This document shows, in pieces, positions 9,101-14,453 of a DNA stretch of 32,000 nucleotides. The DNA lies in the NCBI GenBank assembly GCA_942493095.1, contig OW818675.1:810001-842000 (forward strand), written 5' to 3'. The position numbers and the translations under genes were made by a program. Every line of letters begins with the position of its first letter. Position 1 is the first letter of the stretch. The notes beneath the pieces were generated by a model. It worked only from the letters and a program-made list of their open reading frames with translations. It was not told where the DNA came from and ran no database searches. The DNA comes from Candidatus Electronema halotolerans. Its GTDB lineage: Bacteria > Desulfobacterota > Desulfobulbia > Desulfobulbales > Desulfobulbaceae.

Positions 9101-9116
9101 TGGCACGCCCTTTGCT
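9101..9116 (+). promoter_or_regulatory. Sigma-54 (-24/-12) promoter of pilin gene 1
   Basis: TGGCACgccctTTGCt is a perfect match to TGGCAC-N5-TTGCW. It lies 83 nt upstream of the pilin ATG at 9199. Confidence 0.75.
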
Positions 9117-9198
9117 TGATAAAGGACAAAAGGAAAATAGACCGGCAGACGGCAGCCACGCCCCCGGCAAACCAACACAACCTGAATGGAGGAACACC

Positions 9199-9639
9199 AT
9201 GAAGATGAATAAACTGAGAATGCTGGCCAGCGACAAAGGCTTCACCCTGATCGAGCTGATGATCGTCATCGCCATCATCGGTATTTTGGCAGCAGTTGCG
9301 ATTCCGAACTTCATTGCCTATCGTGACAAGGCGTACTGTTCGGCAGCAGAGAAGGATGCAAACAGCATTGCCGGGGCTGTATCTGAGTATTTTGCAATTC
9401 CGTCTCATACCACATGGGTAGATCAGAGTTTAGCTGCAGGTTATAGTGGTGGAGCGCAGGCGAGTGTGAATTTTTCCGCCTTGTCTGGCCAGAACAGCGC
9501 GAGTGTTGTCGGGCCTGTCAGCAGTATCGTCATCACTGTTACAGATGGCAGTGGTCGCTGCCCTAAAGACTACATGACTGCACAGACTGCTGCTGGCTGG
9601 AATTCCACTGATCGTACTTTCACAAAAGCGATGGAATAA
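9199..9639 (+). CDS. pilA: Type IV pilin (prepilin with N-terminal cleavage/methylation site), full-length Geobacter-like
   Basis: The leader is MKMNKLRMLASDKG, followed by FTLIELMIVIAIIGILAAVAIPNFIAYRDKAY..., the class III signal G|FTLIE. An RBS ggagga precedes the ATG at 9199. The mature protein is 132 aa with two Cys (C33, C107). Confidence 0.9.
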   Translation: MKMNKLRMLASDKGFTLIELMIVIAIIGILAAVAIPNFIAYRDKAYCSAAEKDANSIAGAVSEYFAIPSHTTWVDQSLAAGYSGGAQASVNFSALSGQNSASVVGPVSSIVITVTDGSGRCPKDYMTAQTAAGWNSTDRTFTKAME

Positions 9640-9680
9640 TCACCGTCAACAACTAATCTCTGCTCTTCCGCGAGATTGAC

Positions 9681-9716
9681 ATCTCGCCCCTTAAAAAGGG
9701 GCGAGATTATTTTTTT
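9681..9716 (+). terminator. Rho-independent terminator after pilin gene 1
   Basis: atctcgcccc-ttaaaaa-ggggcgagat forms a 10-bp perfect stem with a 7-nt loop, followed by tattttttt. Confidence 0.85.
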
Positions 9717-11764: not shown

Positions 11765-13837
11765 ATGCAATATAAAAACATAGATACAGAAGCAGCAAAA
11801 AGGAATATTTTTTGTTTTTTTCTGCTTTGTTTTTTGATCTGTTTGGTATATTTTAATACGCTCAATAGTTCTTGGCATTTCGATGATGAACCAAATATTC
11901 TTTTAAACTCATCTCTTCATTTGACAGATTTTTATCTGAAGTCTCTGGCTGACACGTTAATCTCTCACCCTGACTGGTCAAACCCTAAGTTATATCGACC
12001 AATTTCCTGCTTCACTTTTGCATTGAACTGGTATTTTGGTCAGGACGATCCTACAGGTTACCATATAGTCAATATATCTATTCATATCATTACTGCTTTT
12101 TTTCTTTTTCTTGTCCTCCTGCAAATAATGCGTCTTACAGACGTAACAAAAGAAGGAGAGCCAAAGAATTATTTTATAGCCTTATTAGGTGCCGCATTAT
12201 GGGCGGCGGCTCCTATTCAAACTCAAGCTGTCACTTATATCGTTCAGCGCATGGCTTCCTTGGCCGCGATGTTCACCATTCTTGCTATTTACAGCTATCT
12301 GAAAGCGCGGACAGAGAAAAATATCCGCTGGGCTGCGATCTGCGTTCTGTTCTTTCTTGCCGGAATCGGCAGCAAGGAAAATGCAGTCATACTGCCCGCC
12401 TCTCTCCTGCTGTTGGAATTTTCTTTTTTCAGCCATCATATTTCAAAACAAAAGATAGGCTGGATAGCTGTCACCAGTTTCGTTGCGTTACTTGCAGGGT
12501 TCTTTGCAATGCATTTTCTTTTCGGAAAAAATCTGCTGAATATCTTCGATCCATCCCGTCTCATCGACAGTTATGAAGCTCGTTCTTTTACGTTAAGTGA
12601 ACGCATCCTGACTGAACCGAGAATTGTCCTGATGTATATCTCGCAGATATTTGTTCCTCTTGTTTCCCGGCTTTCTCTTGTTCACGATATCCAAGTATCA
12701 ACATCTCTTTTCACTCCGTGGACCACCTTGCCCGCAATTGCAACTATATTCACCTTGATTGCTCTGTCGGTCATATTTCTCAAAAAATATCCTTTGTTCG
12801 CTTTTCCTGTACTTTTCTTTTTTCTTAATCACACCGTAGAATCAACGATCCTTCCGTTAGAATTAATTTTTGAGCATAGAAATTACCTTCCTTCATTTTT
12901 TCTCTTCCTTCCCATCAGTTTGCTGATTGCGCAGGCAATATATATACCAAACAGACTTTCCTCTGTTGGACGTTTTGCCATTATAGCAGGAACCGTATGC
13001 TTCATGATTATTTCCGGTCATGCAACCTATACCAGAAATCTTGCTTGGGCGGATGAAGGAACTTTATGGACGGATGGTATCAGAAAGGCTCCTTCAAGCC
13101 CACGAGCTGCCGGTTTCTTGGGAAGATGGTATCAAAAGCATGGTCAGTATAAAAAAGCATATTATTATTTCAAGCAGTCTTTAGATAAATCTTATTTAGC
13201 ACCAACGCCGAGTGCATCAAGATTCGCAGCTGTTCAATCTATAGGAGATATTCATTATGAGCTAAAACAATATAGAGCGGCTGTTTCTTATTTCACTCAA
13301 TGCCTTGAAATAAAAAATAATAATGAATACTGTCTGACAAAGAGAGCCGAATCGTACTTACAACTTAACTTGCCACAAAAATCTCTGCATGATGCAGAGA
13401 TTCTCTCTACAAAATATCCGTTTTACTCATTAGGTAAATATCTTGCTGCATCAGCAAGTTATCGTTTAGGAAATTTCTCATCAGCTCAGGAATATATGCA
13501 GGAAATTATACGAAAATCATTAGATAAACCAAAAGGTTTATATCTTATGGGCATTATTCTGTTCAACTACAAAAGTTATCCAAACGCCCTCTTTTTTCTC
13601 AGAAGAGCCGCTGATCTATGGCCAAGCAACGCAGAGTATCAGCTCTCTTTAGCGGCAGCTAATTATATAAACGGTCAACTTGATGCTGCGGAAGACACTC
13701 TGCGCAATGTCTTCACCCGTTATCCGCTCCCTGTCATAGAAAAGGCGTTGCAGGATTTTGCACCTGATGCTCCAGATAAAGAGTCAGTCACTTTTGTAGA
13801 GAATATCCTTGCCGGGATGCTTAGAGAGGAAATTTGA
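11765..13837 (+). CDS. TMTC-like GT-C fold membrane glycosyltransferase with C-terminal TPR domain (paralog 2)
   Basis: 690 aa, colinear with paralog 1. It shares the blocks WHFDDEPN, PIQTQAVTYIVQRMA, GSKENAV, FPVLFFFLNHTVEST, FEHRNYLPS and ISGHATYTRN. The ATG lies 2 nt after the stop of paralog 1. Confidence 0.7.
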   Translation: MQYKNIDTEAAKRNIFCFFLLCFLICLVYFNTLNSSWHFDDEPNILLNSSLHLTDFYLKSLADTLISHPDWSNPKLYRPISCFTFALNWYFGQDDPTGYHIVNISIHIITAFFLFLVLLQIMRLTDVTKEGEPKNYFIALLGAALWAAAPIQTQAVTYIVQRMASLAAMFTILAIYSYLKARTEKNIRWAAICVLFFLAGIGSKENAVILPASLLLLEFSFFSHHISKQKIGWIAVTSFVALLAGFFAMHFLFGKNLLNIFDPSRLIDSYEARSFTLSERILTEPRIVLMYISQIFVPLVSRLSLVHDIQVSTSLFTPWTTLPAIATIFTLIALSVIFLKKYPLFAFPVLFFFLNHTVESTILPLELIFEHRNYLPSFFLFLPISLLIAQAIYIPNRLSSVGRFAIIAGTVCFMIISGHATYTRNLAWADEGTLWTDGIRKAPSSPRAAGFLGRWYQKHGQYKKAYYYFKQSLDKSYLAPTPSASRFAAVQSIGDIHYELKQYRAAVSYFTQCLEIKNNNEYCLTKRAESYLQLNLPQKSLHDAEILSTKYPFYSLGKYLAASASYRLGNFSSAQEYMQEIIRKSLDKPKGLYLMGIILFNYKSYPNALFFLRRAADLWPSNAEYQLSLAAANYINGQLDAAEDTLRNVFTRYPLPVIEKALQDFAPDAPDKESVTFVENILAGMLREEI

Positions 13838-13904
13838 GCGTTAAGCAGATTGTTTATATTGAAATAATTGCATTTTTTATTTTTCGTACCGTTTTGAGTA
13901 AAAT

Positions 13905-13920
13905 TGGAACGAATTATGCT
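13905..13920 (+). promoter_or_regulatory. Sigma-54-type promoter of pilin gene 2
   Basis: TGGAACgaattATGCt has the GG-N10-GC spacing. Its flanks align with the pilin-1 promoter: aaattggCacgccctttgcttgataaag versus aaattggAacgaattatgcttgcaaaag. It lies 54 nt upstream of the ATG at 13974, with an AT-rich tract upstream. Confidence 0.6.
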
Positions 13921-13973
13921 TGCAAAAGAGTGGATTGCTGGAACATCTATTACTTCAACACAGGAGCGGTATC

Positions 13974-14453
13974 ATGACACTTAATACATTACTAAGCCGA
14001 AATAAAGAGAAAGGCTTTACTCTGATTGAACTGATGATTGTTATTGCCATCATCGGAATTCTGGCGGCAGTTGCCATACCTAACTTTATCGCGTACCGAG
14101 ATAAAGCGTATTGTTCCGCAGCAGAAAAAGATGCAAGTTCCATTGCTGCGACTCTGGCGGACTATTTTGCGATTCCAAGTCATACTGATATAATAAATCA
14201 AGTTATACACTTAGAAGAAATAGGAAAGCCAGGTTTCTCCGGAGGCCCTGCTTTAATGATGGGAGGAAAAACGTCAAGTCCAATATTTTCTGCTCTTTCA
14301 GGAGTTAATATTGCAACAATTAGAGGCCCGGTTGATAATATCCGAATTAGTGTAAAAGATGGAAGCGGTCGATGCCCGGCAGATTATATGGCGGCCCAAG
14401 CTGGGGCTGGCTGGGATTCAACAAACCGTATATTTGTTAAGAAGATGGAGTAA
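13974..14453 (+). CDS. pilA: Type IV pilin paralog 2
   Basis: The leader is MTLNTLLSRNKEKG, followed by FTLIELMIVIAIIGILAAVAIPNFIAYRDKAYCSAAEKDA. These first 40 mature residues are identical to pilin 1. An RBS aggag precedes the ATG at 13974. The mature protein is 145 aa with two Cys (C33, C120) and a shared C-terminal block DGSGRCPxDYMxAQ..AGW.ST.R.F.K.ME. Confidence 0.9.
   Translation: MTLNTLLSRNKEKGFTLIELMIVIAIIGILAAVAIPNFIAYRDKAYCSAAEKDASSIAATLADYFAIPSHTDIINQVIHLEEIGKPGFSGGPALMMGGKTSSPIFSALSGVNIATIRGPVDNIRISVKDGSGRCPADYMAAQAGAGWDSTNRIFVKKME

Follow-up and report, generated by a model that had tools for sequence, protein, structure and literature searches.

A tandem pair of TMTC-like GT-C/TPR proteins encoded between two type IV pilin genes of Candidatus Electronema halotolerans, a putative pilin glycosylation cassette

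In the genome of the cable bacterium Candidatus Electronema halotolerans, two type IV pilin genes flank a tandem pair of genes for large proteins bearing tetratricopeptide repeats (TPRs), an arrangement that raises the question of what these two proteins do and whether the pilins are their substrates. The locus occupies positions 9199-14453 of a stretch of 32,000 nucleotides (contig OW818675.1 of assembly GCA_942493095.1, positions 810,001 to 842,000), the whole of which we call the window. An earlier note, made from the letters of this DNA, had read the order pilin – GT-C/TPR – GT-C/TPR – pilin as a candidate pilin glycosylation module, in which each large protein would join a membrane domain of the GT-C glycosyltransferase fold to a C-terminal TPR array, as the eukaryotic protein O-mannosyltransferases TMTC1-4 do. 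We find that both large proteins do consist of a GT-C-fold, TMTC-homologous N-terminal domain (N-domain) followed by a TPR array. The interpretation that we favor, and consider reasonably probable, is that Desulfobacterota carry a pilin-plus-accessory cassette at their major type IVa pilin locus, that the locus described here is a duplicated form of it, and that it serves O-glycosylation of pilin in the periplasm, with the TPRs recognizing the substrate.

The four genes lie where the earlier note had placed them, down to the gap of 2 nucleotides (nt) between GT-C/TPR 1 and GT-C/TPR 2, and the first of these two genes starts 78 nt after the end of pilin 1. Both pairs are indeed paralogous: the large proteins share 48% identity over 678 amino acids (aa), and the two pilins are 62% identical. 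Between the large proteins, identity reaches 55% in the N-domain and 35% in the TPR domain. All of the motifs that had been quoted were found (WQFDDAPN/WHFDDEPN, PIQTQAVTYIVQRMA, GSKENAV, FFLNHTVEST, FEHRNYLPS, and FSALSG). The C-terminal array was likewise borne out, with TPR_2 matching at 1e-11 and 5e-13, TPR families above the Pfam threshold at residues ~420-655, and about 15 helices in TPR packing at residues 420-678 of the structural model.

Standard domain libraries see almost nothing in the N-domain, the first 420 residues. A Pfam scan of both large proteins, which the earlier note had proposed as a check, returned only TPR families above threshold, with PMT_2 scoring 23.4 bits against a cut-off of 26.1 in one paralogue and appearing, always below threshold, in 3 of 15 family members. 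DUF1736 (PF08409) had no match at E ≤ 1 in either protein or in any of the 15 members, and Wzy_C had none at E ≤ 1 in either large protein. Taken by itself, then, the proposed Pfam check supports the repeats and looks negative for the enzyme. An NCBIfam scan of the large proteins gave TPR families only, and phmmer and family-profile hmmsearch runs against the sequences of the PDB gave TPR proteins or noise. PADLOC returned a generic TPR match and no fitting pilin-glycosylation model.

Structure comparison gave a clearer answer. The full-length AlphaFold model of GT-C/TPR 1 scored well (predicted local distance difference test, pLDDT, 85.8; predicted template modeling score, pTM, 0.81), and its fold search was dominated by TPR proteins, including consensus TPR proteins and the TPR domain of OGT. 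The fold search became informative only after we modeled the N-domain of GT-C/TPR 2 alone (pTM 0.79, mean pLDDT 73). The 16 best Foldseek matches of this isolated domain in the PDB were all GT-C enzymes, among them STT3A/B, PglB, Pmt4, ArnT, Pmt1-Pmt2, and EmbB, with probabilities of 0.57-1.00 and query-normalized TM-scores of up to 0.54. Apart from further GT-C enzymes (AftA, EmbA-EmbB), the lower-ranked matches were unrelated transporters at probabilities of 0.2 or less. The GT-C fold that had been proposed from motifs is thus supported by structure.

We then compared the alignment of our family, using hhalign, with one of 12 TMTC1-4 membrane-domain sequences taken from the supplementary alignment (supplement 2) of PMC7801869. 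The two profiles matched with a probability of 99.6% (E = 9e-25), and the 389 aligned columns span the whole of both domains. As a control, the family profile was compared with the ArnT/PMT_2-type GT-C enzyme encoded 12 kb downstream, giving a probability of only 0.9%. Because TMTC1-4 match so strongly and the neighboring PMT_2-type enzyme does not, the N-domain is specifically TMTC-like, and the TMTC-like architecture claimed in the earlier note holds.

The blocks that align with TMTC are DD, YRP, H/Q-T-x-AV..V-x-R, KE, and ER/HR..Y..PS; roles of the TMTC motifs in catalysis and donor binding were assigned in PMC7801869. We took invariant columns from an alignment of 27 family members with 36-71% identity to GT-C/TPR 1. 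The acidic motif M1 (DD) is present as FDD, with D26 and D27 of GT-C/TPR 1 invariant in the 27 sequences and D40 and D41 of GT-C/TPR 2 invariant in 15, and it sits in the first extracytoplasmic loop after the first transmembrane (TM) helix, as in the GT-C superfamily. M2 (SHKSYRP) retains only its YRP part, as (K)xYRP with R63 and P64 invariant, and M3 (RxD) retains its Arg (QRMA) with the Asp replaced by Ala. M4 (KE(T/Q)) reads SKEN, with K193 invariant and E194 present in at least 90%, and M7 (ER..Y) reads EHRNY, with R361 and Y363 invariant. M5 (DW, in the DUF1736 loop) is replaced by EHD or VHD, in which only the His (H296) is invariant. By correspondence in the alignment, the Lys/Glu, DD, and Arg motif residues would be the equivalents of the TMTC catalytic site. 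The catalytic residues are all common to the two paralogues, whose TPR domains are more diverged.

Is the family tied to pilins elsewhere? A scan of the species genomes of GTDB turned up at least 568 relatives, of which the 80 best fall in 78 loci, nearly all from Desulfobacterota, and the neighborhoods of nine homologues were viewed besides this survey. The 78 loci were annotated uniformly, using a signal-peptide pattern for pilins, a profile of the family, and phmmer with VKOR-DsbA, PMT_2, and PilR/PilS, and synteny was counted over the 55 loci with sequence on both flanks. In 39 of the 55, a pilin gene immediately precedes the GT-C/TPR gene on the same strand; in 48 (87%) one adjoins it on one side or the other, and in 52 (95%) one lies within 5 kb. 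The background, at distances beyond 6 kb, is 0.014 pilin-like open reading frames per kb. The co-occurrence with pilA that the earlier note had suggested looking for is therefore found. Because gene callers often miss pilins, surveys of called genes would underestimate this linkage. Type IV pilin genes uncalled in the source annotations lie at 3842-4294 and 6589-7068 of the Desulfobulbus sp. TB locus (L002) and at 18-449 of L086.

The neighborhood is conserved beyond the pilin. A VKOR-DsbA fusion gene follows within 4 kb downstream in 33 of the 55 loci, a PMT_2-type GT-C gene lies within 8 kb in 40, and VKOR-DsbA, PMT_2, and PilR each accompany the GT-C/TPR gene in 60-73% of loci. In order, the conserved module runs PilR – sigma-54 promoter – pilA – intrinsic terminator – GT-C/TPR (one or two copies) – VKOR-DsbA – ArnT-like GT-C. 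It appears in minimal form in Candidatus Electronema aureum (L001), where PilS/PilR, pilA, a single GT-C/TPR gene, VKOR-DsbA, and PMT_2 are followed by plsY and asd, as they are in the window. Two contigs from metagenome-assembled genomes labeled Bacteroidales and Pirellulales (L086 and L019) bear the same GT-C/TPR gene, the former also with a pilin of the Desulfobacterota type; these labels are probably binning errors and not a wider range of the module.

Some of the surveyed neighborhoods hold other GT-C genes. At L007 (1-2125), which shares its contig with L014, the gene directly after a pilin encodes a 579-aa GT-C protein that matches Pfam TMEM260_N, a second type of eukaryote-like protein O-mannosyltransferase homologue adjoining a pilin, and a TMTC-like GT-C/TPR gene lies 6 kb further on. 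Other GT-C plus TPR subtypes (531-654 aa, with PMT_2 matches and long TPR arrays) occur in the pilA neighborhoods of L005, L006, and L087, where up to three GT-C genes are clustered. L087 and L007 also have an ABC transporter downstream of the pilin, as in Myxococcus pilGHI.

Expression signals around the pilin genes follow a documented design. The earlier note had given each pilin its own sigma-54-type promoter. For pilin 1 this is well supported, the element TGGCAC-N5-TTGCT at 9101-9116 being the sole perfect sigma-54 site in the window, where 0.07 would be expected by chance. The element upstream of pilin 2 is only a degenerate one (TGGAAC-N5-ATGCT), with 2 mismatches to the consensus and the GG-N10-GC spacing retained. 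Across related loci, a sigma-54 element with at most 2 mismatches precedes 48 of 71 GT-C-adjacent pilins, compared with 4 of 213 control windows of 300 nt, and PilR is encoded within 4.5 kb in 30 of 41. The earlier note had overlooked a strong rho-independent terminator at 9681-9716, between pilin 1 and GT-C/TPR 1, which probably attenuates expression of the accessory genes. Of 56 junctions between pilin and GT-C genes, 39 have a terminator-like hairpin with a T-run after the pilin, compared with 4 of 149 control windows. A "pilin-accessory gene cassette" attenuated by such a terminator has been described in P. aeruginosa groups I and III-V, D. nodosus, and E. corrodens (PMC11841053). It is defined there by a terminator between pilin and accessory gene and by co-regulation through PilSR and sigma-54; the terminator, the sigma-54 elements, and, in related loci, the nearby PilR fit this definition.

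The pilins themselves match the N_methyl/prepilin domain, and each has a 14-aa leader ending KG|FTLIELMIV (mature F1 and E5 in pilin 1). Each contains two Cys residues, at mature positions 33 and 107 or 120 (Cys33 and Cys107 in pilin 1), and 58 of 74 GT-C-adjacent pilins have exactly two Cys at the conserved positions. Since the two Cys are so regularly conserved, a dedicated oxidase would fit, and the linked VKOR-DsbA fusion suggests itself as a candidate for that role. A Cys33-Cys107 bond would join the alpha-1 helix to the beta-sheet, an unusual link. S34 and an L-S-G-x-N-T-x-T motif, which takes in the FSALSG of the earlier note, are common to the 74 GT-C-adjacent pilins, and their Ser and Thr positions are candidate acceptor sites on sequence grounds.

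Why does this locus have two of each gene? The earlier note had offered cognate enzyme/pilin pairs as one possibility. In close relatives, however, the copy numbers are uncoupled: Candidatus Electronema sp. JC, E. gigas AU1_5, and E. laxa (L008, L011, and L067) have two GT-C/TPR genes and one adjoining pilin, and three other loci (L002, from Desulfobulbus sp. TB, L030, and L037) have two pilins and one GT-C/TPR gene. Both kinds of locus speak against cognate pairs, which we reject. In Desulfobulbus sp. TB the order is pilin – one GT-C/TPR – pilin – DUF354 – AsnB, and its second pilin (159 aa, L002 6589-7068) is an orthologue of pilin 2. The many synonymous differences between pilins 1 and 2, even in the conserved 5' part, together with this orthologue, show that the duplication of the pilins is old, and we reject a recent duplication or gene conversion. 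As for the enzymes, the better conservation of the N-domain than of the TPR domain fits a divergence in recognition, whether of site, glycoform, or sugar.

How does this locus compare with known systems? A characterized precedent is TfpW of Pseudomonas aeruginosa group IV (Pa5196, PA7), a D-arabinofuranosyltransferase needed for pilin arabinosylation. This 646-aa GT-C protein is described as having 11 TM helices and a DDX motif on the periplasmic side and as ending in a TPR domain; its gene comes directly after pilA, and its homologues adjoin pilA in other genera (bioRxiv 10.1101/2020.04.19.049825). The earlier note had described TfpW as a GT-C enzyme without TPRs and had known of no comparable enzyme acting on a pilin, and neither statement stands: TfpW is characterized, is pilA-adjacent, and has the same architecture. 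By description, TfpW and the proteins studied here share a position downstream of pilA in a cassette, a DDX motif in periplasmic loop 1, a C-terminal TPR domain, and about 11 TM helices. They differ in that the proline-rich motif of TfpW periplasmic loop 4 (YX6PFX7P) is not found in GT-C/TPR 1 or 2 by regular-expression search, even in a relaxed form, and in that no D-arabinofuranose pathway (DprE1/DprE2-like) occurs among the annotated genes of the window. A polyprenyl-phosphate monosaccharide donor is established for TfpW and would be presumed here. Unlike the TfpW cassette, moreover, the module belongs to another phylum, includes VKOR-DsbA and a second GT-C gene, and often has tandem duplicates.

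Compared with TMTC1-4 (CAZy GT105), the likeness comprises homology over the full length of the GT-C domain, the order of GT-C and then TPRs, and the DD, YRP, KE, and (E/H)R..Y..PS motifs. The differences are the bacterial inner membrane, a donor presumed to be a bacterial polyprenyl-phosphate sugar, the missing DUF1736 match with DW and RxD replaced (EHD/VHD and R-M-A), and a presumed acceptor that is a pilin here and a cadherin domain for TMTC1-4. PilO, TfpO, PglL, and TfpM (Wzy_C) are also periplasmic pilin modifiers often encoded beside pilA; they have an unrelated fold, belong to an unrelated family, and move a preassembled oligosaccharide en bloc from undecaprenyl diphosphate. The gene for a cyanobacterial Ogt that combines TPRs with a GT41 domain adjoins pilA, and pilin glycosylation requires this enzyme (PMC9306852), but it has N-terminal TPRs, a soluble GT-B fold, and a nucleotide-sugar donor, in contrast to the membrane GT-C proteins here.

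The cluster has been noticed in cable bacteria before. Geelhoed et al. 2023 (PMC10580974) depict pilA with genes for TPR proteins and sugar-modifying enzymes (their Fig. 4A), including genomes in which pilA lies downstream of two TPR genes. There the TPR proteins are read as protein-protein interaction modules, the GT-C/TMTC-like domain goes unrecognized, and the terminator design, the VKOR-DsbA link, and conservation outside cable bacteria are not described. With this cluster and the TfpW precedent on record, and with cognate pairs unsupported, the novelty claimed in the earlier note was overstated. What is new is the TMTC homology, the conservation across the phylum, and the linked VKOR-DsbA and second GT-C genes. 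The literature that we searched makes no mention of the TMTC homology, of a Desulfobacterota-wide module, or of the partnership with VKOR-DsbA and a second GT-C, and a search for TMTC together with pilin gave nothing relevant.

On the interpretation that we favor, the system would work as follows. PilR and sigma-54 would drive very high transcription of pilA, and the terminator behind it would let only a fraction of transcripts reach the two translationally coupled GT-C/TPR genes. Each product would be an inner-membrane glycosyltransferase with a GT-C domain of about 11 TM helices and a periplasmic array of about seven TPRs. We infer that pilin is the acceptor, that the membrane-anchored prepilin or pilin is bound through its globular head by the TPR array, and that a polyprenyl-phosphate monosaccharide serves as the donor. 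At the periplasmic face, the monosaccharide would be transferred to Ser or Thr of the pilin before assembly, by way of the DD loop and the Lys/Glu and Arg motifs. The two paralogues would most likely differ in sugar or site, or act in sequence, rather than serve one pilin each. VKOR-DsbA would probably form the conserved Cys33-Cys107 disulfide of the pilin, and the ArnT-like GT-C would probably add or extend a further sugar, with the polyprenyl-phosphate-sugar synthase and PilS/PilR presumably encoded outside the window.

Several points weigh against this interpretation. The model of the isolated N-domain has a mean pLDDT of 73, the Foldseek E-values are modest (2.7e-3 at best), and the topology of about 11 TM helices with non-cytoplasmic TPRs is predicted on the basis of the model and of the TMTC homology. 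The case for pilin as the specific acceptor is one of synteny, and 7 of the 55 loci have no adjoining pilin. No polyprenyl-phosphate-sugar synthase is encoded in the window, and no report of pilin glycosylation in cable bacteria was found in the literature searched. Finally, an exhaustive HMMER search with the N-domain profile returned 72,597 representatives of 50%-identity clusters at E ≤ 1e-3 (13,158 at E ≤ 1e-30), so most members of the family cannot be pilin-specific. The best 150 matches are almost all of about 700 aa, and database entries name family members merely "tetratricopeptide repeat protein." In 38 of the 78 loci we did find a GT2 gene whose product resembles polyprenyl-phosphate-monosaccharide synthases (AglJ, PpgS, or ArnC-like; all below curated cut-offs).

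A family too large to be pilin-specific as a whole would suit a general periplasmic O-glycosylation system with many substrates, like that of Neisseria PglL/PglO, in which pilin would be the most abundant client and adjacency to pilA would serve co-regulation. The ability of TPR arrays to recognize many clients, the extra GT-C/TPR and GT-C paralogues in some neighborhoods (L005, L006, and L087), and the uncoupling of enzyme and pilin copy numbers point the same way. Yet genes that adjoin pilA in 87% of loci and stand behind a conserved attenuating terminator bear the mark of accessory genes dedicated to the pilin, and the eukaryotic TMTCs are described as selecting a single class of protein domain. 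We consider a general system unlikely.

The acceptor might instead be something other than a protein, for example lipopolysaccharide, lipid A, peptidoglycan, or an exopolysaccharide on which pilus function or gliding depends, with the linkage to pilin reflecting a shared surface-structure regulon. The closest profile relatives of the N-domain, though, are the protein O-mannosyltransferases TMTC1-4 and not the ArnT type. Many bacterial GT-C enzymes (ArnT, Emb, and AftA) do modify lipids or glycans, and these are among the fold matches. A 10-kb sugar-modification block also lies downstream in the window, and GT2, GT4, sulfotransferase, and methyltransferase genes lie downstream in related loci, but the minimal Candidatus Electronema aureum module lacks polysaccharide genes, and a TPR domain suggests a protein partner. 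We regard a non-protein acceptor as quite improbable.

That the large proteins are non-catalytic factors for pilus assembly or pilin stability (TPR scaffolds like PilF/PilW/Tgl or adaptors like TfpY, on a GT-C-derived anchor) seems very improbable: TPR lipoproteins are well known among the factors that assemble type IV pili, PilW and Tgl are matched weakly, at the level of the TPRs, in NCBIfam, and the cable-bacteria literature annotates these as protein-protein interaction proteins (PMC10580974), but the equivalents of the catalytic, metal-binding, and phosphate-binding residues of TMTC are invariant in the 27 aligned members, and the catalytic domain is better kept between the paralogues than the TPR domain.

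We thus continue to favor a dedicated pilin-accessory cassette acting by O-glycosylation. A broader version, in which the whole module is a hitherto unrecognized, phylum-wide operon for pilin maturation, combining disulfide formation with stepwise O-glycosylation and having arisen independently of TfpW, is one that we advance tentatively and think somewhat doubtful.

Table 1. Features of the pilin and GT-C/TPR locus and of the genes downstream (window coordinates).
Feature	Positions	Strand	Description
Sigma-54 (-24/-12) promoter of pilin 1	9101..9116	+	TGGCACgccctTTGCT; 83 nt upstream of ATG
Pilin 1	9199..9639	+	type IVa major-pilin-like, 146 aa; N_methyl 1.4e-9, PilA_Myxo 1.6e-14
Rho-independent terminator between pilin 1 and GT-C/TPR 1	9681..9716	+	12-bp stem, 7 G-C pairs, then T-run
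GT-C/TPR 1	9717..11762	+	681 aa; predicted ~11-TM TMTC-like GT-C domain (residues 1-420) and ~7 TPRs (420-680)
GT-C/TPR 2	11765..13837	+	690 aa; paralogue of GT-C/TPR 1
Degenerate sigma-54-like element 5' of pilin 2	13905..13920	+	TGGAACgaattATGCT; TGGAAC-N5-ATGCT
Pilin 2	13974..14453	+	type IVa pilin-like, 159 aa; 13-aa insertion in variable region relative to pilin 1
Low-GC sugar-modification block	14634..24439	+	DUF354, AsnB-like amidotransferase, GH88-like, two methyltransferases, 722-aa ADH-GFO fusion, GT4, flippase-like membrane protein
VKOR-DsbA fusion	24471..25667	+	398 aa; Pfam VKOR 7e-22, DSBA 3e-14
PMT_2/ArnT-type GT-C, no TPR	25664..27328	+	554 aa; PMT_2 6e-11, PMT 7e-10; 4-nt overlap with VKOR-DsbA gene

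Downstream of pilin 2, the sugar-modification block stands out by its base composition, with a GC content of 30-51% against ~55-59% in the flanks. The block varies between lineages: in Candidatus Electronema aureum it is missing and the GT-C/TPR gene abuts VKOR-DsbA, so that by comparison with that genome it is an insertion, placed between pilin 2 and VKOR-DsbA. Its DUF354 and AsnB genes are also found 3' of the second pilin in Desulfobulbus sp. TB. A role for the block in glycan supply is possible.

Upstream of pilA, at 6209-8944 of the window, lie genes for NikR, a PCC-domain protein, and UbiD, and the host is a nickel-dependent cable bacterium. None of the 78 related loci has NikR adjoining pilA, and 11 of the 78, from Desulfobacterales, have a LarC-like nickel-insertion gene upstream of PilR-pilA; we therefore dropped a link between nickel genes and pilA, the synteny being probably coincidental. 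Further away, on the minus strand at 1580-4058, are an RF-1-domain (ArfB-like) gene, a HEPN-domain gene, and a gene for a 424-aa fusion of NuoB-like (Oxidored_q6) and NuoC-like (Complex1_30kDa) domains, unrelated to the finding.

PilA is reported to be the most highly expressed protein of cable bacteria. On the broader version of our interpretation, this most abundant protein would be a glycoprotein, which would bear on the role of PilA in the cell envelope. That the pilA locus encodes two probable pilin glycosyltransferases together with a putative dedicated disulfide oxidase and another GT-C would change how PilA peptides are searched for in proteomes and how envelope glycans are interpreted. 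Several hundred Desulfobacterota genes now listed as "TPR protein" could become "putative pilin glycosyltransferase, TMTC-like GT-C." On the same broader version, pilin would be the first natural protein substrate for the bacterial TMTC-like family, which numbers more than 70,000 sequence clusters. The conserved link to a small, abundant, and easily purified major pilin would make both acceptor specificity and donor sugar testable. It could also turn a bacterium into a tractable model for the TMTC enzymes, which have been linked to human disease.

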